Source: a phage. From it: DNA of 64,000 nt. The DNA is taken from the NCBI GenBank assembly GCA_022143435.1, contig GCA_022143435.1_3941.1, one strand, 5' to 3'. The notes under the pieces are model-generated. The model did no database searches and had not been told where the DNA came from. It saw only the letters and a list, made by a program, of their open reading frames with translations. The translations under genes and the position numbers were made by a program. This document shows positions 12,410 through 34,490 of this stretch, piece by piece; the first letter of the stretch is position 1, and every line of letters starts with the position of its first letter.

Positions 12410-12411
12410 GA

Positions 12412-13911: not shown

Positions 13912-14075
13912 TTTAACTTACCTTTCAATTCACAATAAGAGAGTCCTAAAAAGAACCCTAGTAAGACAGAACCTATGAACAACCCAATAGCACTCTCTGC
14001 CATATCTAACATCCAATAAAAAAGGTGATGTAAGCCTATCAAGACCCACATCACCTTGTCAAGTTTTACATAAGG

Positions 14076-14684
14076 TTATTTTTTCTTACAATTGTCAAAA
14101 TGATATCGAGTCATGTTACCAGCACCACCAGTCATACCACAATGAGGGCAAGTTTTCTTTTTCTTTGGCTTTTTTCCGGCTTCTGACATCTTCTTCCTTG
14201 TTTCTATAGACCTTTTACAACCTTTTGATTTTGTATTGCCTATTTGAGATTCTCCTAACCGTCTTCGATGTTCTTCAGTGAAAACCCTACCTTTATTCAC
14301 AATAGATAGAGCTTTCGAGTTCAAAGCCCTTACCTTTTCATAGTCTCTGGATGATATTTTCCTATCTAGGCCATCATGGGCTAACCTGTTCCATGCAAAC
14401 CATAACTTATGATTGTTTGGATACATCTTAACCAGTAATTTATGAGCTATATAATGCTCTCTAGGTGTAAGTAAAGCAATATTATCTCCACTAATTTTAT
14501 CGCCACCTAGACATACTGGTATGATATGGTGTCTTTCATAACCCTTACCTTGACATTTGTAGTATGTAAGAGGCACACCCCTTTCAGAATGTGCCTTCTT
14601 AATAATTGCATTATATATTAGTTCGTAATTCATTTGTATGCTACATAGAAACCCTATCCTTAATTTCTGCCATCTTAGCGTCAT
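14076..14684 (-). CDS. HNH homing endonuclease (free-standing, abutting 3' end of nrdD); likely start at internal Met ~14633
   Basis: HHIIPVCLGGDKISGDNIALLTPREH...H HNH motif. Confidence 0.65.
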   Translation of the reverse strand: MTLRWQKLRIGFLCSIQMNYELIYNAIIKKAHSERGVPLTYYKCQGKGYERHHIIPVCLGGDKISGDNIALLTPREHYIAHKLLVKMYPNNHKLWFAWNRLAHDGLDRKISSRDYEKVRALNSKALSIVNKGRVFTEEHRRRLGESQIGNTKSKGCKRSIETRKKMSEAGKKPKKKKTCPHCGMTGGAGNMTRYHFDNCKKK

Positions 14685-15609
14685 TCATTCGAGACTGACC
14701 TTTAATTTTTGTGAATGACAAGTACCCGCACACCCTGTTAATCACAGAGATGTCATGTGAATGGCAAACCTCACATTCTTCAACATCAGCCTTTGGTCTG
14801 TTACCACAATGTTCACAGATTGCTAAGTCAAAGTTAAGCCCCTGATAGAAACCTTTCAACATCCCTCTTGTGATACAACTTTTAAGTGCTGTTAAGTTTT
14901 CTGGATTAGCTACCCTGACATACTGGATTCTGCCACCTCTACAGATATGGAAGAATGGCTCTTCTAAGTCCTGCTTCTTAAATGGTGAGATGTCTGCTGC
15001 AACATTCATATGGAAACTGTTTGTAAAGTATTCCTTATCAGAAACACCTTTGATAACGCCAAACATATCTCTGAACTGTTTTAACTGAGTTCCGCAAAGT
15101 GATTCTGCTGGAGTACCATAGACGGCATATAAGAAGCCATCTTCATTTTTAAACTCTTCAGTTTTCATGTTGATGTATGCCAGAACATCGTATGCAAAAC
15201 TACAGCTTCCAACTTCATGAAGTCGTTTACCTTCAGCAAGAACAGATAGCTCATCAAGCGCAGTAACACCAAAAGAAGCTGTGAAGGACTTCACAATATC
15301 CCAACCAACCTTGTCAGTAGGCTTCTTAGTTCCTTTGTACAGACCACCTTGTGTAAATGCAAGAGGGTTAGAACTTGCTGGCATATTAGCAATCATTTCG
15401 TAACGTTTCTTGTGGAAACTACGAATCATCTCTAGGTACTTATCAAGCTCTTTCCAGAAATCTAAACCATTCTCTTTGGTGTACTGATAAATCATTGGTA
15501 AGTTCAAAGATACAGCACCAATGTTAGCACGACCTACATAAAACTCTTCACCATGTTCGTTATGGTATGGTGATAAAAATGCTCTACACTTGTTGTTCAA
15601 GTAAGTTCG
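14641..15609 (-). CDS. nrdD: Anaerobic ribonucleoside-triphosphate reductase, 3' exon (glycine-radical and Zn-ribbon part); 5' boundary approximate
   Basis: C-terminal CEHCG...CEVCH Zn site and RVCGYL glycine-radical motif; ORF track starts on a TTG, reading frame is open up to ~15609. Confidence 0.75.
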   Translation of the reverse strand, partial: RTYLNNKCRAFLSPYHNEHGEEFYVGRANIGAVSLNLPMIYQYTKENGLDFWKELDKYLEMIRSFHKKRYEMIANMPASSNPLAFTQGGLYKGTKKPTDKVGWDIVKSFTASFGVTALDELSVLAEGKRLHEVGSCSFAYDVLAYINMKTEEFKNEDGFLYAVYGTPAESLCGTQLKQFRDMFGVIKGVSDKEYFTNSFHMNVAADISPFKKQDLEEPFFHICRGGRIQYVRVANPENLTALKSCITRGMLKGFYQGLNFDLAICEHCGNRPKADVEECEVCHSHDISVINRVCGYLSFTKIKGQSRMNDAKMAEIKDRVSM

Positions 15610-16329
15610 CTAAGCTTACCCCGCTTTATTCAAGCTGCTTACTGTCGCCAGTAAGTCCAGACTATATCTTCTACTTATTTCTAAGTAGCGTACCATTTCG
15701 AGTCGCTTGACCCTACACCGCTACATTCATCACGGTTAGTCGTTCGGCATTTAGATGTATTCAAACTCATATTCGAAGTTATTATGCTCTTTTACACCCT
15801 TCAATATTGAAGAGATGGTCTTGCGATTGTGTCCAAGTATATTGGATAACTCTCGTATTGACTTAGTAACAATAACTTCCTTTGTCACTTTGTGTGTGGC
15901 TTTCACGGCATATGAACGTTTGTGGAACTTGTAGCATCCGTTCTCATAACCTTCTTTAGCATTCTCAGAATGAGTACCCCATTCTAAGTTAGATGCGTGG
16001 TTATTTAGTTTGTTATCGTCCTTATGTTTTACAATTGGAAGATTATTCGGGTTAGGTACATATTTCTCAGCAACTAACCTGTGGACATACATGTCACGAT
16101 TCTTCTTACCGTAAAACCTTACTTTCATATACCCAGTGTTGGATTTCCACTGCGTAAGCTCTACACCATTTTCCCTAAAGACTTTCCATCTTCAGTGACG
16201 TGATAGTTTGGCATGTAAGACTCCTATGTTGTATAGTTTCTTACATCGTACATCATTTAGCACAGGATTGTCTACATCTGTAGAGTTTCCCTGTTTAGGC
16301 ACGTTTTAGATGAGCTATAGAGCTTGTTA
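15610..16329 (-). mobile_element. Group I intron interrupting nrdD, carrying an HNH endonuclease ORF; boundaries approximate
   Basis: nrdD split into two in-frame halves separated by ~720 bp; segment ~16243-16303 (minus sense CTAAACAGGGAAACTCT...TAGACAATCCTGTGCTAAAT) resembles, from memory, the conserved core of the T4 td group I intron. Confidence 0.65.
15751..16128 (-). CDS. Intron-encoded HNH homing endonuclease
   Basis: HKDDNKLNNHASNLEWGTHSEN HNH motif; located inside the nrdD intervening sequence. Confidence 0.7.
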   Translation of the reverse strand: MKVRFYGKKNRDMYVHRLVAEKYVPNPNNLPIVKHKDDNKLNNHASNLEWGTHSENAKEGYENGCYKFHKRSYAVKATHKVTKEVIVTKSIRELSNILGHNRKTISSILKGVKEHNNFEYEFEYI

Positions 16330-17526
16330 ACCCATCGGTGAAATTACCTTGCCAGAACGCTCAAAAGCTTCTGCTACAGCACCATGACCAGATACACTTA
16401 AGAAATCTGGATACATCGCTTTAGAGCAACACTCTATAGCTTTACTGTACAGGTGTCCTTGACAGATATTCTCATCGTGTCTCTTCTGGTCATAAATATA
16501 AACCAGTTTAGGGAATACAACAGGCTTCTTGCTCTTACCTTGTCCATTCATACGAACATCTAGGAGAGTACTTGCAATCATGTATTGTAGTCGGTTGTCT
16601 TCATTAGACATATCTGAGTCGAGCAACCCAAATGTTAAAGTTGTGAATGCAAAATCCCCACGACTACAAGGTACAGTGTTCAGTTTCATTTCAAGTGACT
16701 GAAAACCTTGAGTTAATTCAATCTGTAGCTGCTCCATGACATAGTTATGGTAATGTTCTTTAGGAATACCATAAGATGCTGCTTTCTCAGCATGGTAACG
16801 TAGAGACTTCTTAGCATACGGTACAAGTACCTTATCAATCTCTGCTAAAGTAAAGCCGCCAAATTGCTGTGCAGTTGCTGAAAGAACTACATCACCAATA
16901 ACCTGTAAGGCTGACAGTACAGACTTCGGTTCACAGTATTCGATGCCAGACATTTCAAAGCCACCTTTCAGTACTTTACCAATGTCAAACAGGCAACAGT
17001 TGATACCACCAAAAATTAGGTCTCTTAAGTCATGGATGTAGATAAACCCTTCTTCAATGGCTTCGAGTTCCTCTGGTGTTAAATGGTACTGCTTAAAGAT
17101 TTCTTTAGTCAGATAACCACGAATAATTGAACCTTTTGTAGAAATTAAACTGCTGTCAAAGTTAGCATTTTCACGGTCACCTAAGAAGAGCGTATCTCTA
17201 GTCTTTTGGTAAAGCTCATCCCAATTTTGAGCAACCTCTTTACGGTAATTTCTATATGTTGAGTAAGACTCATAAATCTCGTGATTGACTTCTGCCAAAG
17301 CACCTTCAACAATACTGTGAATATCATTTACTGAAATGAGTAAATTATTCTGCTTAGTAGATTTTACCAGAATCCTCATAAATGCTGACTCAAGAGCTTG
17401 AGTAACATCTGGTGGGAGTTCTTTATAACCAACCCTATTAGCTGACTTTGTGACTGCTGCTAAAACTTTTTTGATATCAGGTTCTTCGAGTGAGCCATTC
17501 TTTTTAATAATCTGTACTTTGTTCAT
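16327..17526 (-). CDS. nrdD: Anaerobic ribonucleoside-triphosphate reductase, 5' exon (ATP-cone and N-terminal catalytic part); true exon end lies upstream of the ORF stop
   Basis: N-terminal ATP-cone-like segment; continuity with downstream glycine-radical half. Confidence 0.75.
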   Translation of the reverse strand: MNKVQIIKKNGSLEEPDIKKVLAAVTKSANRVGYKELPPDVTQALESAFMRILVKSTKQNNLLISVNDIHSIVEGALAEVNHEIYESYSTYRNYRKEVAQNWDELYQKTRDTLFLGDRENANFDSSLISTKGSIIRGYLTKEIFKQYHLTPEELEAIEEGFIYIHDLRDLIFGGINCCLFDIGKVLKGGFEMSGIEYCEPKSVLSALQVIGDVVLSATAQQFGGFTLAEIDKVLVPYAKKSLRYHAEKAASYGIPKEHYHNYVMEQLQIELTQGFQSLEMKLNTVPCSRGDFAFTTLTFGLLDSDMSNEDNRLQYMIASTLLDVRMNGQGKSKKPVVFPKLVYIYDQKRHDENICQGHLYSKAIECCSKAMYPDFLSVSGHGAVAEAFERSGKVISPMG

Positions 17527-17544
17527 TATTGCCCCTTTACATGC

Positions 17545-17568
17545 TAAAAAGGTCTCCGAAGAGACCCT
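17545..17568 (-). terminator. Hairpin GGTCTC-CGAA-GAGACC with flanking T-run
   Basis: Inverted repeat read in sequence. Confidence 0.45.
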
Positions 17569-17574
17569 TTCATT

Positions 17575-17781
17575 TTAAATCTTTTTAGAAAACTTCGCAA
17601 AGAGTTCTCTTAGTTTTTCAGTGATACCTAACTGTATCTCTAATATTTCGAAGATAACCCATAGTAACATGGCTCCAAACAATGAACCTTGTTCAAAATC
17701 AGTAAATAGGTTAACAACAAGCATACCAATCACAATGGCTGGTGCATCAACAACCAAACCTTCCCAAAGGCGTTTAAGCAT
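17575..17781 (-). CDS. Small membrane protein
   Basis: Two hydrophobic segments. Confidence 0.4.
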   Translation of the reverse strand: MLKRLWEGLVVDAPAIVIGMLVVNLFTDFEQGSLFGAMLLWVIFEILEIQLGITEKLRELFAKFSKKI

Positions 17782-18016
17782 TATTCACCTCTGCCATAAA
17801 ATTCTGTAGCGTCCCAACAGGTTTTAGATTTTGACCATCAGTCTTCATGATGAATGGCATCTGACGAACTGGCATCTGTGCAATATCCATCAGGTCTGAC
17901 AGTTCATAATCCTGCCCTAACATTCTCACAACATGGTCAATACCACGAGCTTTTGCAAAATTCTTTGCAGTCTCACACTGAGGGCATCCAGTTTTGGAGT
18001 AAATTACATAAGTCAT
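17774..18016 (-). CDS. nrdH: Glutaredoxin-like protein (NrdH-type redoxin)
   Basis: CPQC active-site motif near N-terminus, ~80 aa, adjacent to nrdB. Confidence 0.7.
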   Translation of the reverse strand: MTYVIYSKTGCPQCETAKNFAKARGIDHVVRMLGQDYELSDLMDIAQMPVRQMPFIMKTDGQNLKPVGTLQNFMAEVNNA

Positions 18017-19149
18017 TAAGGAACCTCTAAAAATCCACTATTCAAATCATCTACAACAGTATTCAATAAGTACGCACCGTTCTGTTGCTCCTGATTAGCA
18101 TTCTGCTCTTTATCAATTTCCATCTTCTTAATCATATACTTCAAAGGTGGTTCTTTAGGAGCTACAAAATCTCTGGGAATGCCAAACATGTCATACAGCG
18201 GGGCAGCATTATAGTAAACCCACTCATGAAGAAGCTTTGTATTTAAGCCAACTACAGCACGTCCTTCGGAGAAGATATAATACGACCATTTCTCTTCACT
18301 TTCAACTACTTCATCTAAGATTACTTTAATCTCTGGAAGAATTTGTTGAAAAGCTTTCTGCCACTCATCATCTCTTAAAGTTTCTTTTAAAACTTCAATA
18401 TCAATTTTAGTGTGAAGGATTTCGTCAAGCATAATTTTCTGTACCGCTTGAGCAATACCCTGAAATTTATCTTGAGCATCAAGTGCAAAAGTACATGCAA
18501 AGGATGCCATAAAAGATATACCTTCCAGTGCAGTCACTGCAAATAGACCTTTTAGAATCACTTTATGGAAGTGTAAAGGGTCTTTGTCTAGAAGTGAGTC
18601 ACGGACATAACTCAGCCGATAGTTTATACCTTCATCTAGTAATTCTTCGAGAACACGATTCACAGTTTTTAATCGGTCTTGTACAGCAATGTTCTGGTTA
18701 ATCTCATCTAAGATTGTTTCAGGATTTTTAATACATTGTCTTACAATCTCCGAGTAAGTAAGAGCATGTAGGTTTTCAATCTCAGACTGCTTCATAATTG
18801 CAGTTGCATAAATGTCATCAGAGATGAATGGTGCAAAGGCAAACGCTAAGCTCTTAGCAACTTGGGTATCTGCTTCCCACTGCCACTTAAGAATCTCAAG
18901 CATTACACCTGACATTGATGCTGGCACACTCTCAAAATCAAGACGTGATTGCTCAAAAGGGAACTCATCTTCTGACCAATCTTGTGCTTTTTGTTGTTTA
19001 TAGAGTTCAAAGATTTTTGGGTAGTGCTTGTTAAGTGAGTCAAATGTCTTTCTCTCACCACCTAAAAAGATTGGGTGTTGGTTAATCATAGCGTGATTTC
19101 TCCTTTCTCTATCATCTCTAAGGCTTGTTTTCTGTCTAAAACTTCCCAA
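18016..19149 (-). CDS. nrdB: Ribonucleotide reductase class I small (beta) subunit; likely start at internal Met ~19089
   Basis: Size, position next to nrdA; ferritin-like R2-type protein. Confidence 0.8.
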   Translation of the reverse strand: MGSFRQKTSLRDDRERRNHAMINQHPIFLGGERKTFDSLNKHYPKIFELYKQQKAQDWSEDEFPFEQSRLDFESVPASMSGVMLEILKWQWEADTQVAKSLAFAFAPFISDDIYATAIMKQSEIENLHALTYSEIVRQCIKNPETILDEINQNIAVQDRLKTVNRVLEELLDEGINYRLSYVRDSLLDKDPLHFHKVILKGLFAVTALEGISFMASFACTFALDAQDKFQGIAQAVQKIMLDEILHTKIDIEVLKETLRDDEWQKAFQQILPEIKVILDEVVESEEKWSYYIFSEGRAVVGLNTKLLHEWVYYNAAPLYDMFGIPRDFVAPKEPPLKYMIKKMEIDKEQNANQEQQNGAYLLNTVVDDLNSGFLEVP

Positions 19150-19427
19150 TTTTCTTTGTTGAACATCTCATAAGGTCTTGCGTAGATTTTACCATCTGCT
19201 GTAGAGATGTAAGAGATACCAGCAACCCATGAGTCATCCTTTTGTTTTATCATCATATCTGTGCTACTCACATAGTACATCGTTTTCCGAGGCTTGTGGA
19301 GCAAGTATATAGGTCGCTCATGTTTTTCTATTAAATCTTTCATGGTCTCTCCAAAGTTATTTTTAGAGGGTCTTTTACGACCCTCATAGTTATTAAAACT
19401 AAACACCACAACCCTCGCAATAGGCAT
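19086..19427 (-). CDS. Small hypothetical protein between nrdA and nrdB (likely start ~19343)
   Basis: ORF; overlaps neighbours at its ends. Confidence 0.3.
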   Translation of the reverse strand: MPIARVVVFSFNNYEGRKRPSKNNFGETMKDLIEKHERPIYLLHKPRKTMYYVSSTDMMIKQKDDSWVAGISYISTADGKIYARPYEMFNKENWEVLDRKQALEMIEKGEITL

Positions 19428-21633
19428 CTTGCAGTGCAGACTTACCTACACCGATGCGACTGTTAAGGTAGTACATGGTTTTCATACCTACCGAGTTAGC
19501 GTAAATCATGTATTTCAAAGCTTGAGCCAATGATACCTTCTTAGCTTTTGCGTAGTCAACATAGAAATCTGAAGAGATAGCTTGACCAGTGAACTTTTGA
19601 ACAATTGCATAACAATCAATCAGGTCAAAGGTGTCAATACCCCAAGCAATTTCATATACATACTTCAACTCTTCATAATCTGGAACAATAAACAGTACGT
19701 TACCAGTTGCAGACTTTTTAGTTAAAATAAAGTCACGAATTGGGTACAAGCCGTTTGTCGTATTAGTTGCTAGTGAAGAACTCTCATTAGGCATGTAAGC
19801 TTCTAATACAGAGTTTCGGATTCCACCATTTTCTTTGATACGTTGTGCTAAGTCATCCCAATCATATCTTAGTTTTGCATCATGCTTCTCATCAATCTTC
19901 TTGTTGGCTGTCTTTGGAGGAACCCAGCCTTCAGGATACTTAGTGAACTTCATGTACTCTGGAACTCCACGCTCTTTAGCAAGTCTCAGAGAGGCTTCAT
20001 GTAGATAGTAAGAGTGCATCTCTGCAAGTTCATGAAGCTTCGTTTTACCTGCTCGTGAAGAGTAGTTCACGTAGTTCTTCGCAAGGTAATGAGCCACATT
20101 TGTAAGGCCAATACCAACAGAACGACGCTTCTGAACATGGTTACGCATCGACGGATACGGATAATCCATAAGGTCAATAACGGAGTCAACCATTGCAAGA
20201 GCATAATAAGCAACGTCAGCGTATTCATCTTCTGAAATTCTCCCTGCAACCAAACTAGCTAGGAAGCAAAGAGCTACCTCACCATCCTCTTTCACAGCAT
20301 CATCTCTGTAAAGGTCTGTCTCTTTCTCAAAGCCGTACACTGGCAACACAATTTCCATACAAAGATTTGACATCTTCAAAGGCTCTTTAAATGGTGTATG
20401 TGTGTTTGTGTTGTTAGTGAAGAATGGATACACACGACCTGTAGCATAACGCTGTTGAATAAACAGCTTAGCAATTTCACGAGCCTTGACTCGTCTGTGC
20501 TTAACTCCTGAATGTACTGCGTGACCAACTGCCATAGCAAACTCATCAGCAGATGCTGTGTAGAACATGTCATAGAGTTTTGGTGCATCTTTGTAAGAGA
20601 ATAGCAACCAATCTGTATCATACTGAACACACTGCCAGAAATAATCGTTTGTGCCGAATGAGTAGTCCATCTCATTAATACGTTTAGAAGGAACCGTTGT
20701 AGGGTGCTTCAAACGCAGTAAATCTTCAATCTGCGGGTCTAGAGCAGTGTAGAAGTTATTAGCTGAACCACCACGACTCTTCTGTTTATTTGCCTCTACA
20801 GATGAACGTACAAGCTTGTAATAAGGTAGCTTACCCATGTGCTCAATAGTATTTTGACGGATACCATCACCAATAGTACGTGTCTCCATCAGCATACCAA
20901 TACCAGCTTGCTTTGTAGTCATATCATAAGCAACCTTTGCAGCAATACCAAGTGATTCAGCAGTATCGTTTGCCTTAATCAAGCAGCATGACGCATAACC
21001 TGATTTAGTTGCCCTCAAACCGTTTAAATAAGGCGTAGGAGCGTTAATCTTCAGGTCAGATAGGTAAGTGTACAGCTTGATAACATCTTGCAGTCTACGG
21101 TGCTTTGGTTGCTTCTCAAAGGCTTTCATAGCCATACCCATAAACATAAATTGTGGTGACTCAAAAAGTCTTCCCGTTTTAATATCACGGATACCATACT
21201 TGTCCCTAAACTGTTTCAATACTGCATAGCCGTAAGAGATATCTTTTGAGTGTACGATGTAACCTTGCAGATATTCAAGCTCTTCCTGTGAATAGTCCAT
21301 CTTCTCCCAAAGTCCTGCTCTCTCCATATTTTTAACGAAGGTAATCAGCGTAGGAACCTTAGTAAAGCCTCCAAAGGCTTCTTTGTAGATAATACCCAAA
21401 AGCAGTCGTCCAGCCATATCTGAGTACTCTTGAGTTTGTTTATCAACACAAACATCAATCATGGCTTGGTGCATCTCTTTTGTAGTGCAACCCTCATAGA
21501 CACGTTTCATAGCTTCCATAGTGACTTCTGACCAGATAATTCCACGTTTATCTGCCCATGATGCCCACTTATTCAGTCTTTCTGGGTCAAAGCTTACTAC
21601 TGTACCGTTTGATTTTTTAATTGTCTTAATCAT
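19399..21633 (-). CDS. nrdA: Ribonucleotide reductase class I large (alpha) subunit
   Basis: 744 aa; N-terminal ATP-cone; C-terminal CEGCGV-type tail. Confidence 0.9.
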   Translation of the reverse strand: MIKTIKKSNGTVVSFDPERLNKWASWADKRGIIWSEVTMEAMKRVYEGCTTKEMHQAMIDVCVDKQTQEYSDMAGRLLLGIIYKEAFGGFTKVPTLITFVKNMERAGLWEKMDYSQEELEYLQGYIVHSKDISYGYAVLKQFRDKYGIRDIKTGRLFESPQFMFMGMAMKAFEKQPKHRRLQDVIKLYTYLSDLKINAPTPYLNGLRATKSGYASCCLIKANDTAESLGIAAKVAYDMTTKQAGIGMLMETRTIGDGIRQNTIEHMGKLPYYKLVRSSVEANKQKSRGGSANNFYTALDPQIEDLLRLKHPTTVPSKRINEMDYSFGTNDYFWQCVQYDTDWLLFSYKDAPKLYDMFYTASADEFAMAVGHAVHSGVKHRRVKAREIAKLFIQQRYATGRVYPFFTNNTNTHTPFKEPLKMSNLCMEIVLPVYGFEKETDLYRDDAVKEDGEVALCFLASLVAGRISEDEYADVAYYALAMVDSVIDLMDYPYPSMRNHVQKRRSVGIGLTNVAHYLAKNYVNYSSRAGKTKLHELAEMHSYYLHEASLRLAKERGVPEYMKFTKYPEGWVPPKTANKKIDEKHDAKLRYDWDDLAQRIKENGGIRNSVLEAYMPNESSSLATNTTNGLYPIRDFILTKKSATGNVLFIVPDYEELKYVYEIAWGIDTFDLIDCYAIVQKFTGQAISSDFYVDYAKAKKVSLAQALKYMIYANSVGMKTMYYLNSRIGVGKSALQDAYCEGCGV

Positions 21634-21651
21634 TTTTGAATCCTACAGATG

Positions 21652-21676
21652 AAAAGAGCCTCCGAAGAGGCTCCCT
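21652..21676 (-). terminator. Hairpin AGAGCCTC-CGAA-GAGGCTC upstream of nrdA
   Basis: Inverted repeat read in sequence. Confidence 0.45.
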
Positions 21677-21679
21677 AGT

Positions 21680-22018
21680 TTAAATCTTGAAAATTTGCTC
21701 ATTCTGCCACATATCGTAAAACTTATCACTTACTTTTGTGACTGAAGAAGTGTGCATACAATTCAGGGAGAACCATGATGATGTATTATCATCCATAAGT
21801 GTTTCAAGTTTTTGTGTAACGTTCACATCCATGTCTGCAACAACGTAATTGCCTCGCATCTTGCAAACAATTCTTCCAAACAAGATTGCACTTCTACCTC
21901 TTCGGTCATCACAGTACATAACTGTGTCCCCGTGCTTAACATCTTGTCCGAGGCTGTCAACGCCTAACTTAGCACCTGAGACAATATCATCATAAGATAG
22001 CTTTTTTGCTTTAGACAC
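21680..22018 (-). CDS. Hypothetical protein
   Basis: ORF. Confidence 0.4.
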   Translation of the reverse strand: MSKAKKLSYDDIVSGAKLGVDSLGQDVKHGDTVMYCDDRRGRSAILFGRIVCKMRGNYVVADMDVNVTQKLETLMDDNTSSWFSLNCMHTSSVTKVSDKFYDMWQNEQIFKI

Positions 22019-22343
22019 GGTATTTCTCCAAGTTTCTTTTTAGATATAACCAACTATAGTCAGTCCTTTCTACACCCATAAAGAGTGGAGCCATCACAAC
22101 TTTACCGAAAGTATTCCTGTGTTGGCAGATTTCAAAGGAATATTCTTTCTCAATATCAATCCCATATTTGTACAGGACTGCTTTTAAAACTTGTTCATTG
22201 TCCAGAAGTGTATCTGGAGTCTCACCATATTTTTCTAGTAACGGGTCATTCATGAACACCGTCATAGAAATATTGTAGTTTGAGAAGTGGCTCTTCTGAG
22301 CCACACCCTCTTTATTAATGTTCTGTGAATCCATTATAACCAA
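22011..22343 (-). CDS. Hypothetical protein
   Basis: ORF. Confidence 0.4.
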   Translation of the reverse strand: MVIMDSQNINKEGVAQKSHFSNYNISMTVFMNDPLLEKYGETPDTLLDNEQVLKAVLYKYGIDIEKEYSFEICQHRNTFGKVVMAPLFMGVERTDYSWLYLKRNLEKYRV

Positions 22344-23070
22344 CCCCTTTTAACCAGCACTTCAGGTTATTAGCATCATAATTCAGTTTCGGGTATGAGG
22401 TTACATGGAACTGCTCACCATCATAATAGACAATATCTGCAATCCATAGTCCATTCTCTTTACAGAAGTCTTTATCTGCTTTAGAGGTAATTGGATTAAC
22501 TTCTACAAAACCATCTACACCCAAATCCTTTAAGCTACCTACAATACCTTTGCAGATAACGCATGTCTCAGATACTACCACAAAAAGTTCTTGGCTTTCA
22601 AGTTCTACAATGTATTCACCAAGCTGTACTTTAGGGAGATTTGATTGCTTCATAATCTTCCCATCGGCTGCACGGACAATCGCATACCACTCTTTACCAT
22701 CAACTACTGACATTCTGATAACACACTCTTGACCAGTACGCTTTTCAATGTCTGCAAGACGTTTTAAAGCTTCTTCATAGTCATCTGTGTACTTCAGGTC
22801 ATTATTATGGCAAACAGCTTCCATAGCACCGTTATGGTCATGTTGTGACAGGTAAATCAAACCGTCAAGAACATATTGTAAATCTGCCTGAGCATCCAGT
22901 GTCTCAATGGGGTCTTTCTCTTCAATTGCTTTTACAAGCTCTTTTGCTTCTTCAAGCATACACAGAGATTGAGATTTTAAAGATTCCCAATACTCATTAC
23001 TGTAAGGTTGCTTTTGAGTGTTTCCACAACGAAGGTTCCAGTTTTTTACTGATTCTCTTGAGTTAAACAT
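22315..23070 (-). CDS. Hypothetical protein; N-terminal region weakly MazG-like (all-alpha NTP pyrophosphohydrolase)
   Basis: EEAKELVKAIEE...DAQADLQYVLDGL resembles the MazG/HisE EExxE...D motif pattern. Confidence 0.3.
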   Translation of the reverse strand: MFNSRESVKNWNLRCGNTQKQPYSNEYWESLKSQSLCMLEEAKELVKAIEEKDPIETLDAQADLQYVLDGLIYLSQHDHNGAMEAVCHNNDLKYTDDYEEALKRLADIEKRTGQECVIRMSVVDGKEWYAIVRAADGKIMKQSNLPKVQLGEYIVELESQELFVVVSETCVICKGIVGSLKDLGVDGFVEVNPITSKADKDFCKENGLWIADIVYYDGEQFHVTSYPKLNYDANNLKCWLKGVGYNGFTEH

Positions 23071-23309
23071 TCGGACTCCTTAAAATATCTGTTAACTTTT
23101 AGCTCTCGTGTTTCAATATATTCTAGATGCTCACGTAGCTCTTGACGTTTAAGCATTAGGTGCTGCATTTGAGATTCAACAGCTTCAACTTCTTTGATTA
23201 TTGACTCTCTAGCATTTGCAAGGATGCGCTCAAGTTCTTCAATCTTGCTGTCAACTTTTGCTACATGACTCACAGCTTTACTTTTGTTAAACATTTTATT
23301 CTCTCTCAA
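23046..23309 (-). CDS. Hypothetical coiled-coil protein
   Basis: ORF, helix-prone charged sequence. Confidence 0.35.
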   Translation of the reverse strand: MRENKMFNKSKAVSHVAKVDSKIEELERILANARESIIKEVEAVESQMQHLMLKRQELREHLEYIETRELKVNRYFKESECLTQENQ

Positions 23310-23315
23310 TAGTTA

Positions 23316-25334: not shown

Positions 25335-25354
25335 TATGGCTCTCCATATGAAAA

Positions 25355-25385
25355 AGCCCCATACGGAGTACAGGGCTTTAAAGTA
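25355..25385 (-). terminator. Hairpin AAAGCCC...GGGCTTT followed by T-run on minus strand
   Basis: Inverted repeat plus TTTTTCAT. Confidence 0.45.
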
Positions 25386-25395
25386 ACTTTAGAGA

Positions 25396-26253
25396 TTAAT
25401 CTTCTGTATCGAAGTCTTCATCCTCTTCGTCATCTGGGTCTGGCAAATCTTCATCATCACCATCATCAGAATCATTCGAAGATTTATGGTCTGTTGCGTC
25501 TTCTTCAGTGATTTCACCGTTATCTTCGACACCATCAAGACCAAGCATAGCCAGTTCATCTTCATCCAGTTCAGGTTCACCATTAGCACCGTTGCCACCA
25601 GTGTAAGGTACAAGAGTATCAATGATAAACTGTTCCTGAATAGGTTTAGTCAGAACATTGTTCTCAAAAGTGTAGAAGTGAGTAGAAAGAATCACACTAC
25701 CAAAAGAACCGTTACCAACTGCGATATCTGGATGAATTACATCATAGTTCTTATCATCTTCATGCTTATCAGATGCTTGAGCTTTGATTTTCTTCATCGG
25801 CTGCTTAACAGCTACACGCTTACCATTTACTTCTTCAATCAGCATTACAGGGAATGACTGTTTAGCTGTCCATACAGCACCATCTTTATAAGCTGCTGCA
25901 CGACTTACTTTCAAGATGTAGTAAGTGTCTGCTTCAAATGGTGGTTTGCAACCAAACTTCTCTTCGAAGTCATCTGCATCAACTGCTTCAGTGGTAACTT
26001 TATCCCAACCTTCTGGGTTTTTCTTAGACTTAGTAAACTCTTTAAAGAGTTTGTTACCGTCTTCTGCCAGAATTGATACGCTGTAGTTACAATCTTTTCC
26101 TGGGAATTTCTTGTCAATAGATTTACCTTTACCCGGACGTGGTGAAGTGTTCAGGTAATAAAACCAGACATCTTTCAGCAGGTAACGCAGAGTTTGACGT
26201 TCAGTACCGTTGTACTTCTCTACCGGAGCTTTCATTTTAACAACTTTAGACAT
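25396..26253 (-). CDS. Single-stranded DNA-binding protein with acidic C-terminal tail (T7 gp2.5-like)
   Basis: Extremely acidic C-terminus (DDGDDEDLPDPDDEEDEDFDTED); replication-module context. Confidence 0.55.
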   Translation of the reverse strand: MSKVVKMKAPVEKYNGTERQTLRYLLKDVWFYYLNTSPRPGKGKSIDKKFPGKDCNYSVSILAEDGNKLFKEFTKSKKNPEGWDKVTTEAVDADDFEEKFGCKPPFEADTYYILKVSRAAAYKDGAVWTAKQSFPVMLIEEVNGKRVAVKQPMKKIKAQASDKHEDDKNYDVIHPDIAVGNGSFGSVILSTHFYTFENNVLTKPIQEQFIIDTLVPYTGGNGANGEPELDEDELAMLGLDGVEDNGEITEEDATDHKSSNDSDDGDDEDLPDPDDEEDEDFDTED

Positions 26254-26289: not shown

Positions 26290-26318
26290 ATTCTAATTTG
26301 TTGATACTCTATTGTCAA
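26290..26318 (-). promoter_or_regulatory. Sigma70-like promoter (TTGACA-17 bp-TAGAAT on minus strand) upstream of the SSB gene
   Basis: Hexamers and spacing read in sequence. Confidence 0.5.
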
Positions 26319-26325
26319 ATACTAA

Positions 26326-28906: not shown

Positions 28907-28914
28907 CCTCTCTT

Positions 28915-29658: not shown

Positions 29659-29719
29659 TTTATCTCCCTTAATTACTAAAAAGCCCCCAACTAAGGAGGC
29701 TTGTAAGATTTATAAAGAC

Positions 29720-30520
29720 TTAGTGCAGTTGCTCAGCAGACTCTTTTTCAGCCATAGCTGAGATTTGCTTCACAAAATCATCACCGAAGTTAATGCGTAG
29801 TTTCTCTTCAATGATTGAAGCACCAATGTTCACCAAAACATCATTGATTGCTTGCATACTAACGCCACCAGTCATTTCCTCAATGAACTCAATACTCACA
29901 CCCATCATCTGTGACAGTTGGATTAGTGCAACGATATTCATCATCGTAGATATAGCTGGAATCATCAGTGCAACTTTCACCTGAAGTGGTTCAATGTCAG
30001 CTACAGAGTCATTTTCAACAGCTTCTTCCAAAGACTCTTTAGTTTGCTGGATAATCTCTTTGATTCGTGGGTTTAATTCTTCTACGCCCCAATCAAGTTT
30101 TTCATATCGTGAAAGTTTCTCTTCCATACGCTTCTCAAGAACAGCCATAACAGCACTCGTTGATGAGATAAGCGTATCAATAATGAAATCAGTGTCCTTA
30201 GTCAGCAACAGTTCCTTATCTTCGTCTGACATCCTGATATAGTCATTCTTTTGCATTTCATAAAAAATGAACTCAGCAAGTGCATCAACACCAACCGCAA
30301 TAGATGCCAGAGCAAGTGTAGTGTCTGTCAACATCATATTAACCTGTTCTGCAAAAGCACCGTTATCAGACTTGTCTTCAGGCAAGTTATAGCTTGCAGG
30401 CATAAACTGTTCTGTGTAGTTGTTGCCACGAAGAATCATAGCCATGCTTTCTACGGCATTGATTAAGAATGCTTCATCAACACCTTTCTCTTCAAGCATC
30501 TTTTCTACATCGATATTCAT
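29720..30520 (-). CDS. Acidic early protein of unknown function
   Basis: Hand count ~50 Asp+Glu versus ~21 Lys+Arg in 266 aa; second gene of leftward early operon. Confidence 0.4.
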   Translation of the reverse strand: MNIDVEKMLEEKGVDEAFLINAVESMAMILRGNNYTEQFMPASYNLPEDKSDNGAFAEQVNMMLTDTTLALASIAVGVDALAEFIFYEMQKNDYIRMSDEDKELLLTKDTDFIIDTLISSTSAVMAVLEKRMEEKLSRYEKLDWGVEELNPRIKEIIQQTKESLEEAVENDSVADIEPLQVKVALMIPAISTMMNIVALIQLSQMMGVSIEFIEEMTGGVSMQAINDVLVNIGASIIEEKLRINFGDDFVKQISAMAEKESAEQLH

Positions 30521-30521
30521 A

Positions 30522-30944
30522 TTATTTCTCTCTCAGTTGGTTAAGTTTCTTTCTAGAACATTTTAAGTTTTCGGATGAAGAAAAGTCAAGTGTCTTTTCA
30601 GAACGTGGATAATAGTTCCTATCCCAAGAAGTTTCAACATCGTTAATCAGTGATGCTAGATTACACAGGTCTGTACCACTTTGCAACCTCTTTTTAAGAG
30701 AATCTAGTAAAGCAACTGTGTCTTTAGCTTTACGTCTCGCTGTAGCAACATCTTTCATATGCTCAAATACAGAGCATTTTAAGTCATCTTCATAGTCTTC
30801 AGACAACTCTATTTCATGTTGTATATCAACCATTCTCCTGTGATGGTGAGCATATTCCCGTTGAGCAGCAATGTCAAGTTCTTCCAACTTCTGCAAAGCT
30901 CTAACAAAGTCAGCTATGTCTGGGTGAACAAACATTTTCTGCAT
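30522..30944 (-). CDS. Hypothetical early protein
   Basis: First gene of the leftward block. Confidence 0.4.
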   Translation of the reverse strand: MQKMFVHPDIADFVRALQKLEELDIAAQREYAHHHRRMVDIQHEIELSEDYEDDLKCSVFEHMKDVATARRKAKDTVALLDSLKKRLQSGTDLCNLASLINDVETSWDRNYYPRSEKTLDFSSSENLKCSRKKLNQLREK

Positions 30945-31201
30945 GTAAGCCTCTTTTAAGTAGCTATTAAGTTTTAATCTTTTATCTTAACGTATTCTAT
31001 ACGTTATACTTTAAAGCTTTTTAAAAGCTATTAAATAATCTTTTAAGAGTTTTAAAGTATCTGTATAGTTAAACTGTTAAGTAACCTTTTAAGTAAAAAC
31101 CCACTTCGCAAAGATTAACACCTTGTCAAGTGCATTGTCAACTTGCTTTTTATAATTTTTTGCAGTAATGTATGAGGTTAATGATTTTAGAGGGAGTAAA
31201 A
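30945..31201. promoter_or_regulatory. AT-rich divergent intergenic region between leftward and rightward gene blocks; contains TTGTCA/TTGACA hexamers and TATAAT
   Basis: 257-bp non-coding gap; hexamers present but spacing non-canonical. Confidence 0.4.
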
Positions 31202-33901
31202 ATGGAAAACGTAGATTTTAAAAACTTACATTTAGTTGGTGATACAGAAACTGATGGTTTACTCCTTGAGTTCACTAAAGTGCACGTAATGGCTTTCGCA
31301 GACTATAAATCTGACGATGAAGAGCCGCCTGTATGGGTCTTTACAGATGAGCCTATCCTCGGTCACAAGTATACCAAGTATATTAAGGGTGGCTTACGTG
31401 AAGGTATTGAGTTTGCGTTAAAGGCAAAACGTCTTTGCATCCATAACGGTCTCGGTTATGACTGGTGGGTTTTCAATCACATTGCACCTGATTTATGGAA
31501 CTTTGATAATCCAAAGTGTAAACCGTGGAGTAATTTCTTTCAGGATTCTCTTATCCAGTCTCGTGTTCAGTGGATGGATAGACCAACTCCAAAGGGTTAT
31601 AAAGGTGCTCATGGTTTGGCTGCATGGGGTGCTCGCGTTGGTGTTCGTAAGCCAGAGATTGAGCATTGGGGTGTGTGGAATGCAGAAATCTTCACTCGTG
31701 TTGTAGAAGATATCCGTATTAACGCCAAAACTAAACGGGCACTTGATAACGAGTATCTCAAGCTTAAGAAGTGTGGTATAGACACTTATGAGACTTACAT
31801 GCGAGCTAAAGAAACATCTTTCTGGATGAGTCAACAGGCTATTAATGGCTGGAAAGCTGATAAAGAGCTTATGGAGTTCCATGTGAAGGAACTTGACAAA
31901 TTGACTAATGAGCTTGCTTCAGAGGTTGAACCACATCTACCTCCAACTATTAAGACCAAAGGTAAAGTCACTGGAGAAGAGTTTGCAAAAGCTTGGAATG
32001 AGTATGTTGAAGCATTCGGTCATGCAGATGGACTGAAGAGAATTACCAAGTACCCTAAGACAAAGTACCGTCAGCAGGTACGTAACGGTGAGATGCAGAC
32101 ATACGAAATCAAGCCATTTGGTAAGCCAACTACAAAGATTTTTAACATTGAAAAGAGAAATTGCTATACACCAACCAACTCTGTAACTGGTGAAGAGTAC
32201 AAGGAAGGTTTTGTAGCAATGAAGGATGCTCGTGCAATTTGCAATGAGTTGAACGCAAAGATTGGTAAGAAATGCAAAGACTGGAAGCCAGTAAAAACAG
32301 TCAAAACTGTGAAGTACTATAACAGTCATGTTGTTAACCACTTTGAACTTGAGTCAAGTCGCTACACAGGTTTGATTGATGCACCATATACACCAATTGA
32401 GTTCGAAGTTTCTCGCATGACTCAGGTAGCAGTTGTTAAAGACTACTTGAAATCAGTTGGTTGGATTCCAGATGACTGGAATTACAAGAAAGACTCAGAT
32501 GGTCGCCCTGTCAAAGTTTGTCGTTTCAAAGACAATAAAAAGATGATTACAAAGCATCCTAAGTGGCAGGAAATGGTTGAGCGGTGTGGTTTGAATTATG
32601 TTGAACATGAAGGTGTACAGTACATCGAGCATAACTGGTCTGTGAAGAAATACACAGATTTGCTTGAGCCTTGCTTAATCCGTACTTCACCAAAACTTAC
32701 TGAATCATCTTATGATACGATTGAAGGTGAGCTTGGACAGAAGATTGCTAAGTACTATACTTTGATGCACAGACGCAGAACTATTGAGAACTCAAAGGAT
32801 GATGAAAAAGGTTGGTTGAACCAGATTCGTCCTGATGGTCGCCTTAGTGCTGGCGCAATGGTGTTTGGTACTTCAACTGGACGTATGACACAATATGGTA
32901 TTGTAAACGTACCGTCTGGTGCTGCTGTCTATGGGGAACCAATGAGGGCAGTGTGGATTTGTGAGGAAGGTACTAACGTTGTCTCTGTAGATATGAACTC
33001 AGCCCAGCTAGTTCTTCTTTGTAACTTTATGGGTGATAAAGAGTTCACCAAAGCGGTAACGCAAGGTAAAGAAGAGATTGAGTTTATTCGTCAAGAAGAT
33101 GGACGCTATTACTGCAAACATTTTGATGAGTACCTCAACCCAGAGATTGATAAGTACCTTCGCTATGACTCTGAGAATGACCTGTACGTTGTCTATTCAG
33201 GGACTGATGCACATACACTGAACAGTATCTACTTTAGCTTGAACGATGAGCAGGACATCTTGACTTGTCGAGCTACTCAGGATGAGAATCTTCTTCATGA
33301 GATTAGCAAAGGTCGTAAGAAAGCTAAGAATGGTATCTATGCACTACTGTTTGGTGCAGGTGATGAGAAGTTTGCTAAAACTATTAAGGCAGCCACTACT
33401 CAGGAAGGTGCATTAACTAAACAGACTTACTTTGTGCGTTTGCCAAAGATTAAGAAACTATTAGATAACTTGGAAGCTGACTACAAAGCAACTAAAAAGG
33501 CACTTGAAGAGGTGTTTGGTAAGACCGCTGCAATCTCTAAAGGGGGTTTTGTAAAGGTTGCTGGAGCTTGGTTGTGGTGTAAATCTCCACATAAGTTGTT
33601 GAATTATTTGCTCATGGGTTCGGAAAGTCAGATTCAGAACGAGGCAATTAACCTTGCTTGCCGTCGTATGATTGACGAAGGTTTGATGAAGTTGAACGGT
33701 CGCAAACCAGCTATAGGTGCTCGTTTATTGTGCTCCTATCACGACGAGACAAGTTGGGAATGTCCAGAAAGTATGACGGCAGAGGTGAAGGCTGTCACTG
33801 ATTGGTATTACGGGCAAGCCTCTAAGAACTTAGGACTAAAGAGTGAAACACTGGTAACTGGTACTGGTAAGGTTGGTAAGTCGTGGTTGGAAGTGCATTA
33901 A
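31172..33901 (+). CDS. DNA polymerase, family A with 3'-5' exonuclease domain; probable start at ATG 31202
   Basis: Exo I motif VGDTETDGL; ~900 aa; RBS AGGGAG upstream of 31202. Confidence 0.9.
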   Translation: MRLMILEGVKMENVDFKNLHLVGDTETDGLLLEFTKVHVMAFADYKSDDEEPPVWVFTDEPILGHKYTKYIKGGLREGIEFALKAKRLCIHNGLGYDWWVFNHIAPDLWNFDNPKCKPWSNFFQDSLIQSRVQWMDRPTPKGYKGAHGLAAWGARVGVRKPEIEHWGVWNAEIFTRVVEDIRINAKTKRALDNEYLKLKKCGIDTYETYMRAKETSFWMSQQAINGWKADKELMEFHVKELDKLTNELASEVEPHLPPTIKTKGKVTGEEFAKAWNEYVEAFGHADGLKRITKYPKTKYRQQVRNGEMQTYEIKPFGKPTTKIFNIEKRNCYTPTNSVTGEEYKEGFVAMKDARAICNELNAKIGKKCKDWKPVKTVKTVKYYNSHVVNHFELESSRYTGLIDAPYTPIEFEVSRMTQVAVVKDYLKSVGWIPDDWNYKKDSDGRPVKVCRFKDNKKMITKHPKWQEMVERCGLNYVEHEGVQYIEHNWSVKKYTDLLEPCLIRTSPKLTESSYDTIEGELGQKIAKYYTLMHRRRTIENSKDDEKGWLNQIRPDGRLSAGAMVFGTSTGRMTQYGIVNVPSGAAVYGEPMRAVWICEEGTNVVSVDMNSAQLVLLCNFMGDKEFTKAVTQGKEEIEFIRQEDGRYYCKHFDEYLNPEIDKYLRYDSENDLYVVYSGTDAHTLNSIYFSLNDEQDILTCRATQDENLLHEISKGRKKAKNGIYALLFGAGDEKFAKTIKAATTQEGALTKQTYFVRLPKIKKLLDNLEADYKATKKALEEVFGKTAAISKGGFVKVAGAWLWCKSPHKLLNYLLMGSESQIQNEAINLACRRMIDEGLMKLNGRKPAIGARLLCSYHDETSWECPESMTAEVKAVTDWYYGQASKNLGLKSETLVTGTGKVGKSWLEVH

Positions 33902-34439
33902 TGGTGACAAAATGATTACACAAGAACGTTTAAAGGAACTACTACACTATGACCCCGAAACAGGGGTCTTTACTTGGCTTCGTAGGGAGGGTGACTCAAG
34001 GGCTGTTAAAGTCTTTAATAGTCGGTACGCAGGACAGGTAGCGGGGAGCATCCAGATTGACTCAACTGGTCATAATCAGATTACTATCTATTTTGACAAG
34101 AAAGCACATAAAGCGCACAGACTCGCATGGCTGTACGTGTATGGTAGGCTGCCGAAAGGTGTTATTGACCATGTTAATGGGGACTCCCTTGATAACAGGA
34201 TTGTAAACTTAAGAGAAGCAGATGACTACCAAAGTGCTTGGAATAAAAGCAAACTATCCACCAATAAATCAGGCTATAAGGGTGTAAGCCTGAAGAAGAA
34301 GTCTGGTAGGTGGGTTGCGCAAATAAGCTATAAAGGTAAAAAGATGTCATTAGGCTACTATGACACACCAGAAGAGGCCCATAAAGCTTACTGTGAAGCT
34401 GCTGTAAAACTCCACGGAGAGTTTGCAAAACTAAGTTGA
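33873..34439 (+). CDS. HNH homing endonuclease with AP2 domain (paralog of 23810-24334)
   Basis: Shared LHYDPETGVFTWL N-terminus, HNH core (IDHVNGDSLDN) and AP2-like SGYKGVSLKKKSGRWVAQI. Confidence 0.6.
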   Translation: MVSRGWKCINGDKMITQERLKELLHYDPETGVFTWLRREGDSRAVKVFNSRYAGQVAGSIQIDSTGHNQITIYFDKKAHKAHRLAWLYVYGRLPKGVIDHVNGDSLDNRIVNLREADDYQSAWNKSKLSTNKSGYKGVSLKKKSGRWVAQISYKGKKMSLGYYDTPEEAHKAYCEAAVKLHGEFAKLS

Positions 34440-34490
34440 CAAGGTGCTCAGGGAAGAGTACCTTATACTATATCTTGTATAGGAGGGCTT

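Follow-up and report, generated by a model that had tools for sequence, protein, structure and literature searches.

A recurrent 11-mer in a Felix O1-like phage is best read as part of conserved σ70-type promoter modules

Does a short sequence that recurs upstream of several phage genes belong to ordinary promoters, or is it the site of a regulatory protein? The question is raised by the 11-mer TTGACAAGGTG, which lies ahead of three genes in a 64-kb stretch of DNA (the window, meaning the whole stretch analysed here) from a Felix O1-like myovirus (Felixounavirus, 94% to Escherichia phage dune). Typing and biocontrol of Salmonella and E. coli make wide use of phages of this group. For Felix O1 neither a phage RNA polymerase nor a known sigma modifier has been reported, and the 2010 genome paper described the passage of transcription through many terminators, as well as its timing, as unknown. 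RT-PCR timing has been published for phages of this type and is coarse. In the literature searched we found no transcription start or 3′-end data for Felix O1-like phages, and searches on Felix O1 promoters and Felixounavirus transcriptomes or transcription start sites returned no description of the motif.

Exact copies of the 11-mer are located at 14052–14062 on the minus strand (S1), 31119–31129 on the minus strand (S2) and 34436–34446 on the plus strand (S3), and nowhere else in the window. Each copy stands between genes and points the same way as the genes downstream of it; the distance to the ATG is 141 bp at S1 (ATG at 13911), 175 bp at S2 (30944) and 45 bp at S3 (34491). An earlier inspection of the letters alone (the sequence-only reading) had reported these copies with their orientations and gene distances, together with a close variant at 38292 (S4), and all of this was confirmed, the variant being TTGACAAGTCAGGTG. 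The complete Felix O1 genome contains the 11-mer exactly three times, at the same three loci. A fourth copy is located outside the window, in the region that corresponds to ORF40/41 of Felix O1 (the fourth site). The count against shuffled sequence that had been proposed gave a divided answer. Three copies were observed in the whole window against 0.05 expected, a post hoc figure whose significance we dropped once all recurrent 11-mers were counted (194 canonical 11-mers occurring at least three times in the window, versus about 52 in shuffles). Recurrence among intergenic regions, in contrast, is non-random: when the 4.8 kb of DNA between genes is read in the orientation of the genes, no more than two 11-mer families appear in at least three different regions, where shuffles give an expectation of 0.01. 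Only 8 of the 78 TTGACA hexamers in the window are intergenic, three of these eight with AGGTG, and a TAnnnT hexamer stands 17 or 18 bp after TTGACA in 5/8 intergenic versus 5/70 coding cases. S1–S3 are conserved at orthologous positions in about 27 genomes from three genera (Felixounavirus, Mooglevirus and Suspvirus), and beyond 11–13 bp they have no residual similarity to one another. Intergenic, correctly oriented, non-random and orthologously conserved, the motif is promoter-associated, as had been proposed.

We favour, with a probability of roughly 60%, the reading that TTGACAAGGTG represents the consensus −35 element of host σ70 promoters, joined by five adjacent bases retained for local reasons. 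Sigma-70 promoters combining a consensus −35 with a weak or extended −10 are found among E. coli housekeeping promoters and among the host-polymerase early promoters of T4, T5 and T7. The sites resemble them. TTGACA is matched at 6/6 positions at S1, S2, S3 and in a further box upstream of S2, and −10 hexamers with T1, A2 and T6 occur within 16–18 bp: TAGGCT at 18 bp (S1), TACCTT at 17 bp (S3) and TAATCT at 18 bp (S2, counted from the upstream TTGACA). The sequence-only reading had seen TATA(A/C)T at 22–24 bp and considered the spacing non-canonical. TATACT does stand at 22 bp at S3 and at 23 bp at 38292, but TAnnnT hexamers at 17–18 bp (at 38292 TATTTT, 17 bp) had been overlooked, and the spacing is in fact normal. 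TATACT at 22 bp was rejected as the −10 of S3, as it is TATACA in 10/27 and TATGCT in 1/27 genomes, so that its essential last T is often lost. An extended −10 TG is found at S1 (TGaTAGGCT) and S2 (TGtTAATCT, or TGgTAGTCT in Moogle), whereas S3 is without it (GAG-TACCTT) and the fourth site has its TG immediately next to the hexamer. The sites differ from typical σ70 promoters in their poor −10 elements, which match the TATAAT consensus at only 3/6 positions, and in sharing five bases after the −35; their starts are predicted here from sequence. A simple promoter scan did not list S1–S3, and no −10 string in the published BPROM table for phage UAB_Phi87 matches them, strings and not mapped coordinates being compared.

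Conservation points to the hexamers as well. Column counts among relatives show that at S1 and S3 they are more conserved than the surrounding non-coding bases. Ounavirinae of Erwinia and Pectobacterium have TTGACA-N17-TATCTT, TACATT or TAGGCT at the S3 and S2 positions without AAGGTG; in these orthologous promoters only the hexamers and their spacing are kept. Hence the phage would carry a small set of promoters with a perfect −35, a weak TAnnnT −10 and normal spacing, and the TTGACA of S1 and S3 is most simply a plain −35.

At S1 the proposed −35 (TTGACA, 14062–14057, minus strand) is followed by a proposed extended −10 at 14041–14033 (TGa 14041–14039 and TAGGCT 14038–14033), with a predicted start at about 14026. 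The same DNA would specify the intrinsic terminator of the nrdD/HEG transcription unit (14016–14057, minus strand), a stem AAGGTGATGTGGGTCT/AGGCTTACATCACCTT at 14057–14022 followed by T6, which was the top terminator match (centroid −23.5 kcal/mol, z = −5.2). A free-standing homing endonuclease gene (HEG; 14076–14684, minus strand) with a NUMOD3 motif and an HNH-like region lies between the nrdD stop and S1; many relatives are without it at this place, and the motif is unchanged there. The 16-bp stem ending in CACCTT, the T6 tract, the position directly after a stop codon and the compensatory changes are those of an intrinsic terminator; unlike such terminators S1 has a complete proposed promoter within it, whose −35 adjoins the 5′ arm and whose −10 lies in the loop.

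We located S1 in 27 genomes through the string TTGATAGGCTT, which recovered 21/21 protein-ascertained loci, other relatives being examined in addition. Of these genomes 26/27 have TTGACA intact and 19/27 have the whole 11-mer; in the other eight it is altered, at four positions, and the −35 and −10 hexamers are retained. TAGGCT is invariant in 27/27, in a set that was located via the 11-mer surrounding it. TTGATAGGCTT is unchanged in all 27 genomes although it forms the hairpin top, and the 5′-arm bases that pair with it vary; TGATAGGCT, inside this locating 11-mer, is likewise unchanged in the 21 protein-ascertained loci, and only the partners of TAGGCT vary. Across 12 distinct sequences of the stem 97.4% of cells are paired, with two compensatory pairs and five pairs kept through one-sided wobble changes, the shuffle control being only modest (28–32 of 500). 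In phage KMM2 a change of GGTG to GGTA is matched by one of CACC to TACA, which compensates it. AAGGTG is not under extra constraint: at S1 changes in it are about as frequent as in its partner CACCTT, and the corresponding bases of the fourth site vary in other genera.

The first gene downstream of S1, nearer than the ATG at 13911, is a conserved small hydrophobic ORF of 39 codons (13884–14003, minus strand). Differences between relatives include conservative replacements (ESAIGLF/ENIIGLF), and the Felix O1 annotation at this position is a membrane protein. S1 has no orthologue in Erwinia phages because Fifi318 is without nrdD.

S3 follows the DNA polymerase gene and appears to be built in a similar way. 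Its proposed −35 (TTGACA, 34436–34441, plus strand) and proposed −10 (34459–34464; TACCTT in 26/27 genomes and TACCAT in 1/27) lead to a predicted start at about 34471, ahead of a Shine–Dalgarno sequence AGGAGGG (34481–34487) and the ATG. A predicted 9-bp hairpin AAGGTGCTC-AGGGAA-GAGTACCTT (34441–34464, plus strand) spans the spacer and the −10. The 11-mer is present in 25/27 genomes and both variants preserve the pairing; variation is found at a loop position (G/T) and in the stem as A-U to G.U and G.U to A-U. The hairpin is without a U tract, hence unlike a canonical intrinsic terminator, and may only pause polymerase, stabilise RNA or be processed. At the same place Erwinia relatives have a different 8-bp hairpin, with an orthologous promoter TTGACA-N17-TATCTT. 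An HNH_3 + AP2 homing endonuclease gene (33873–34439, plus strand) lies between the polymerase gene and S3, its TGA stop inside TTGACA, and in ten IMG/VR loci as well as in Moogle and Mordin the polymerase stop directly adjoins the motif. The 54-bp S3 block behaves as an autonomous cassette: to its left stands the polymerase stop in some genomes and an endonuclease gene in others, and to its right one of two different genes. The S4 variant (38292–38326, plus strand) has TTGACA at 38292–38297, in the loop of a hairpin (38274–38286/38308–38320, z = −4.1), and is identical in Moogle and SUSP1. Either TATTTT (38315–38320, 17 bp) or TATACT (38321–38326, 23 bp) is possible as its −10. The rIIA/rIIB junction has the same −35/hairpin/−10 design.

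The arrangement suggests how one stretch of DNA might both end one transcription unit and begin the next. At S1 and S3 the RNA hairpin at the end of the upstream unit would contain the promoter, AAGGTG forming the 5′ arm and the −10 lying in the loop (S1) or in the 3′ arm (S3); the hairpins thus explain the extra AAGGTG at these two sites. Transcripts arriving from upstream could fold the hairpin and at S1 would terminate at the T tract. Those initiated at the promoter would begin inside or after the 3′ arm, hence could not form the hairpin and would run into the next genes. From sequence, spacing, conservation, hairpins and pairing-compatible variation, all of which were observed directly, we infer that transcription starts and stops at these points. 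We propose four start points, three of them in the window with predicted coordinates and one at the ORF40/41 junction, and, as a recurring design, a promoter lying within the terminal hairpin of the unit before it.

S2 lies in the divergent polymerase/replication region, where two TTGACA boxes stand 12 bp apart and the 11-mer contains the downstream one. The upstream box (31136–31141, minus strand) is the proposed functional −35 of a leftward replication-gene promoter, and TAATCT (31112–31117, minus strand; TAGTCT in Moogle and Mordin), with TGt in front, would be its −10. The final TG of the 11-mer falls at −15/−14 of this promoter and would supply the extended −10. The predicted start at about 31105 (minus strand) is followed by a 160-nt AT-rich leader to the ATG at 30944. 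The upstream TTGACA is in register with the single TTGACA of orthologous Erwinia-phage promoters (21 versus 22 nt to a shared TCTTTTCG) and is kept in 26/26 genomes, and the 6 bp between the two boxes vary. We rejected the second TTGACA as a −35, as there is no TAnnnT at 16–18 bp from it (AAGTGG and similar). Although it has no usable −10, it is invariant in 26/26 genomes, and indeed the whole 11-mer is conserved in all 26 examined from three genera (21 IMG/VR loci plus dune, Felix O1, Moogle, Mordin and SUSP1). No significant RNA hairpin was found at S2 (z = −0.2), and a search of Rfam at the gathering threshold gave no family anywhere in the window, nor did the S2 region match one at E ≤ 1. 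A perfect TATAAT (31151–31156, plus strand), arranged back-to-back with the S2 promoter, precedes the rightward DNA polymerase gene (true ATG 31202), with no −35 at 16–18 bp. S2 and the fourth site are clearly paralogous over promoter and leader; at the latter, Mooglevirus, Suspvirus and related contigs have ACGTG, AGCTG or AGATG but retain both TTGACA boxes.

The sequence-only reading had considered an activator or repressor box possible in place of a plain −35, and a role of this kind is possible at S2 only. That three independent promoters have the same five bases after the −35 goes beyond what hairpin composition by itself would predict. An operator for a phage or host DNA-binding protein that switches the main start points together, formed by the 11-mer or by the tandem TTGACA-N6-TTGACA, is an explanation we consider unlikely on the whole. 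A candidate binder is an HTH_3 protein (38925–39254, Pfam only), encoded by a Cro/CI-type HTH gene in the rightward operon; binding would cover part of the −35 region at S1 and S3 and occupy the spacer at S2 and at the fourth site. In favour of an operator are the 11 identical bp at three start points (four genome-wide), far beyond chance in intergenic DNA, the invariance of S2 despite its place in a promoter spacer and without a hairpin, and the unexplained timing of Felix O1 transcription. In phage lambda the operators OR and OL overlap promoters and are bound by Cro/CI-type HTH proteins, and a short conserved sequence inside promoter cores together with an HTH_3 gene resembles that system. 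Unlike OR and OL, however, the sites show no dyad of fixed span: the inverted repeats cover 36 bp at S1 versus 24 bp at S3, a difference at odds with binding by a dimer of fixed geometry. Nor is the sequence kept as a unit across sites and genera, as would be expected of an operator, given the altered S1 copies, the divergent fourth site and the absence of AAGGTG from orthologous promoters of Erwinia and Pectobacterium relatives. S2 alone is invariant, and its 11-mer may have an operator role.

An activator box would recall the middle promoters of T4, in which a MotA box, (a/t)(a/t)(a/t)TGCTT(t/c)A centred at −30, replaces the −35 and is used with AsiA; in both cases a phage-specific sequence near −30 would lie upstream of a TAnnnT −10. 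Unlike T4 middle promoters the sites described here have a canonical −35, and TTGACAAGGTG is unrelated to the MotA box. No MotA or AsiA homologue has been reported for Felix O1. Rather improbable, in our judgement, is the related idea that the invariant second TTGACAAGGTG box of S2 and ORF40/41, together with the S1 and S3 boxes, forms the site of a putative phage factor that shuts off or re-programmes −35-dependent promoters. Such a factor might be a protein of the anti-sigma or sigma-appropriation type, or the HTH_3 protein; if this is true, it would be the temporal control that has so far been missing for Felix O1-like phages.

We also doubt, somewhat more strongly, that only TTGACA matters and that AAGGTG is the relic of a short promoter-cassette duplication, or a coincidence, without function of its own. 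The paralogy of S2 with the fourth site would fit a duplication, as would CTTGACAAGGTG and TAGGCTTA, which S1 and the fourth site have in common, and 11-mers recurring three times are common in the whole window. The recurrence among intergenic regions speaks against coincidence, the lack of further similarity between S1, S2 and S3 does not fit a relic, and AAGGTG is paired in conserved S1 and S3 hairpins with compensatory or wobble changes. It is very improbable that the motif belongs to a DNA site recognised by homing endonucleases, since, although HEGs adjoin S1 and S3 and a different HNH gene adjoins S1 in phage Silverhawkium, the two HEGs are of different families, there is none at S2 or at the fourth site, the motif is equally conserved in HEG-less genomes, and an Erwinia phage has an HNH gene at the same point where its promoter is without AAGGTG.

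Hence S1–S3 are best interpreted as genuine σ70-type promoter modules that have been conserved; in kind, these host-type promoters and the terminator are ordinary. The nesting of a promoter in a terminator and the tandem of −35 boxes are of modest interest, and the proposed start and stop points provide testable predictions and might be useful parts for phage engineering. A pattern search of IMG/VR with the tandem TTGACA-N5-CTTGACAAGGT gave about 12 independent matches beyond Felix-like contigs, which is about the rough chance estimate. Two groups were noted among them, neither with a near relative among isolated phages. One is coding (VDKALDKV); the other is T4-like, AT-rich and intergenic, and the gene downstream of it resembles T4 gp55 by eye.

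The region 30000-39000 matched 265 phage records by megablast, nearly all of them Felixounavirus, with Escherichia phage dune on top (94% identity), and the gene order of the window agrees with dune and Felix O1. Genes for nucleotide metabolism and replication form a leftward block (~1-31150), which is followed by a rightward block from DNA polymerase to thymidylate synthase (31200-42000), and the structural genes 3' of that block are leftward. As the sequence-only reading had noted, TTGACAAGGTG (TTGACA with an AGGTG tail) occurs at 14052-14062 (minus strand, after nrdD; S1), 31119-31129 (minus, between DNA polymerase and the leftward replication genes; S2) and 34436-34446 (plus, after DNA polymerase; S3). 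The window contains no further exact copy. The complete Felix O1 genome has three copies at the same loci. Recurrence by itself carries little weight, since the window has 194 canonical 11-mers with three or more occurrences, versus ~52 in dinucleotide shuffles, and the expectation of 0.05 for TTGACAAGGTG applies to a word picked post hoc. The unusual feature of the 11-mer is its location. With genes called crudely (93% coding, 31 intergenic regions) and k-mers counted in gene orientation within the 4.8 kb of intergenic DNA only, just two 11-mer families appear in at least three different intergenic regions, where shuffling predicts 0.01. TTGACA is found 78 times in the window; eight of these are intergenic and three of the eight carry AGGTG. 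The observation is confirmed and not due to chance.

It had been proposed that a TATA(A/C)T hexamer follows at a non-canonical 22-24 bp, and that the 11-mer may therefore be an activator or repressor box. Instead, TAnnnT hexamers are present at normal spacing. TTGACA is followed at S1 by an 18-bp spacer and TAGGCT (TGa just before it), at S3 by 17 bp and TACCTT, and at the close variant at 38292 (plus strand) by 17 bp and TATTTT. At S2 the proposed -35 is an upstream TTGACA (31141-31136), with an 18-bp spacer and TAATCT preceded by TGt. A TAnnnT at 17/18 bp accompanies 5 of 8 intergenic but only 5 of 70 coding TTGACA. TACCTT at S3 is retained in 26 of 27 genomes, the sole exception (TACCAT) being nearer consensus. 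TATACT, by comparison, reads TATACA in 10 of the 27 and TATGCT in one, so that it often lacks the last T, essential in -10 elements.

Conservation was assessed in loci retrieved via neighbouring proteins, a sampling unbiased as to the motif. Among 21 Felix-like IMG/VR contigs the 11-mer is identical in 21 at S2, 20 at S3 and 14 at S1. When dune, Felix O1, Moogle, Mordin, SUSP1, Michonne, Silverhawkium and KMM2 were added, S3 had it in 25 of 27 genomes, S1 in 19 of 27 and S2 in every genome examined. The string TTGATAGGCTT, by which S1 copies were located, is unaltered throughout 27 genomes, which comprise the 21 loci ascertained by protein and the further relatives examined. In more distant Ounavirinae (Erwinia phages Fifi318 and Prophecy, Pectobacterium phage Arno162) we found TTGACA-N17-TATCTT at the S3 position and TTGACA-N17-TACATT or TAGGCT at the S2 position; none of these phages carries AAGGTG. 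Anchored on the shared TCTTTTCG, their one -35 lines up with the upstream S2 box (22 versus 21 nt). Promoter function at these places would thus be ancestral and its geometry canonical, and the AAGGTG tail, judging from the genomes compared, is specific to the Felix/Moogle/SUSP clade.

We conclude that the 11-mer sites are real, conserved host-type promoter modules, of a known kind and not previously described as such. In the Felix O1 genome paper few promoters were identified, none of them in the ORF96/97 region, and the passage of transcription through terminators and its timing were stated to be unknown. S1-S3 are apparently absent from the UAB_Phi87 BPROM table, in which no listed -10 string matches (judged by strings, not coordinates). 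The literature searched contained neither the motif string in a phage context nor a start-site or transcriptome study of the Felix O1-like group.

The proposed activator or repressor box, an operator for a putative regulator, fits S2. There the 11-mer is a second TTGACA, 12 bp past the first, without a usable -10 of its own and without a significant hairpin (z = -0.2). It sits within the spacer of the first-box promoter, its TG at -15/-14, the extended -10 position. The six bases between the boxes vary, but neither box does. On the opposite strand the polymerase gene lacks a -35 at 16-18 bp but has a perfect TATAAT (31151-31156, plus) 10 bp away from the first TTGACA, so that the two polymerase-binding sites must overlap. 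The polymerase promoter region (31136-31202, plus) is back-to-back with the leftward S2 promoter, and the gene truly begins with the ATG at 31202 rather than at 31172, where the ORF opens. A fourth copy lies beyond the window in the genome's other divergent region, Felix O1 ORF40/41 (Felix O1 21515-21541, locus L053; IMG/VR loci L132-L159). It reads TTGACAaagcacTTGACAAGGTA-TAGGCT in Felix O1 and TTGACAAAG(T/G)ACTTGACAAGGTG-TAGGCT in 20 other Felixounavirus contigs. S2 and this site are paralogous across the promoter and an AT-rich leader of ~150 nt, which at the fourth site is rich in CTTAAAAG-type boxes. All genera retain the tandem TTGACA-N6-TTGACA there, whereas variants of the tail read ACGTG, AGCTG or AGATG and keep TG alone; what is conserved as a unit there is the tandem -35 together with TG and not the 11-mer. 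An operator seems doubtful overall: the 11-mer varies at S1 and at the fourth site, the Erwinia relatives lack AAGGTG, and there is no dyad of constant span. Factor binding may nevertheless be a role of the second TTGACA at S2, as a candidate only.

That the shared 11-mer is a pure relic or coincidence is improbable, being contradicted by the pairing evidence at S1 and S3. At S1, AAGGTGATGTGGGTCT pairs with AGGCTTACATCACCTT, followed by T6, and the hairpin is the top terminator-like site within 7000-26000 (centroid energy -23.5 kcal/mol, z = -5.2). It lies directly 3' of the nrdD stop in relatives; in the window an inserted homing endonuclease gene separates it from nrdD. Of the stem cells in 12 distinct sequences, 97.4% are paired, with double changes in two pairs and one-sided wobble changes in five, although the control is exceeded only modestly (28-32 of 500 shuffles). 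TTGATAGGCTT forms the hairpin top, and where its pairs change, the partner is always the changed side. In phage KMM2 the 11-mer has GGTA and the partner CACC has become TACA. At S3, AAGGTGCTC-AGGGAA-GAGTACCTT folds into a 9-bp hairpin, with the -10 as its 3' arm. The 11-mer has two natural variants here (GGTA in dune, TTGACAGGGTG in locus L013), which turn G·U into A-U and A-U into G·U with pairing retained; the variable column sits in the loop. Erwinia phages have a different hairpin, of 8 bp, at this position (GATGCACA/TGTGTATC). An AAGG...CCTT stem foot is typical of this phage's terminators and, from the predicted folds, explains much of the AAGGTG tail. The S3 block (54 bp, TTGACA through the Shine-Dalgarno sequence) is flanked on the left by the polymerase stop or a homing endonuclease gene and on the right by one of two different first genes; with variable flanks on both sides, it acts as an autonomous unit.

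In the proposed mechanism, each promoter module would close the upstream unit and then restart transcription. RNA arriving from upstream would carry both hairpin arms and fold, and at S1 would terminate. RNA begun ~7 nt past the -10 (predicted starts ~14026 at S1, ~34471 at S3) would start inside or after the 3' arm, so that the hairpin could not form. A perfect -35 with a weak -10 would make the promoters strongly dependent on -35 recognition. Of most experimental interest are the tandem -35 and this promoter-in-terminator design. The rIIA/rIIB junction (5510-5588, minus) has the -35/hairpin/-10 layout of S3, TTGATA-AGGGGCTTCAAAGCCCCT-TAAAAT (z = -4.1), also seen in Felix O1 (TTGACA-AGGGGC...). 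At 8496-8547 (minus), TTGACA-N16-TATGAT is directly followed by a terminator hairpin (8519-8496), with the predicted start within its 5' arm.

A homing-endonuclease target is unlikely, as the endonucleases at S1 and S3 come from different families and genomes without endonuclease genes carry an unaltered motif. nrdD itself is split (14641-17526, minus) into an N-terminal (16327-17526) and a C-terminal part (14641-15600), with an HNH_3 endonuclease ORF (15751-16128) between them. A group I intron match at 15638-15818 is sub-threshold (33.1 bits, local E = 2.3e-6; gathering score 50), and a further fragment lies at 16211-16294. The interruption is probably a group I intron that carries a homing endonuclease gene, like the one in nrdD of T4. 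A hairpin-like 18-mer, GACCCCGAAACAGGGGTC then TTTACTTGG, occurs at 33951-33968 (plus), within an HNH_3/AP2 endonuclease gene, and at 24254-24271 (minus), which suggests that this endonuclease gene has a paralogue near 24250.

Outside the Felix-like phages, TTGACAAAGTGCTTGACAAGGTG-TACATT is found in a group of uncultivated phages that is AT-rich (31% GC; IMG/VR loci L080, L093, L094, L103, L105, L125) and has no near relative among isolated phages. In L103, the only one with ORFs read, it lies in a 67-bp gap upstream of an ORF resembling T4 gp55 late sigma factor by eye, with neighbouring ORFs also T4-like by eye. This motif may be chance, since ~12 independent non-Felix hits are about our own chance estimate. 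Two long non-coding regions of the window, 36456-36864 and 37896-38364, consist of ~100-120-bp repeat units in which 5-nt-periodic GGTNN runs are flanked by TTTAAAAGGTCTTTTAA boxes and small hairpins; TAAAAGGTCTT (at most one mismatch) occurs 16 times versus 2.3 expected. They match no Rfam family, are conserved in Moogle and SUSP1, and could serve as an origin or a protein-binding array or encode small RNAs.
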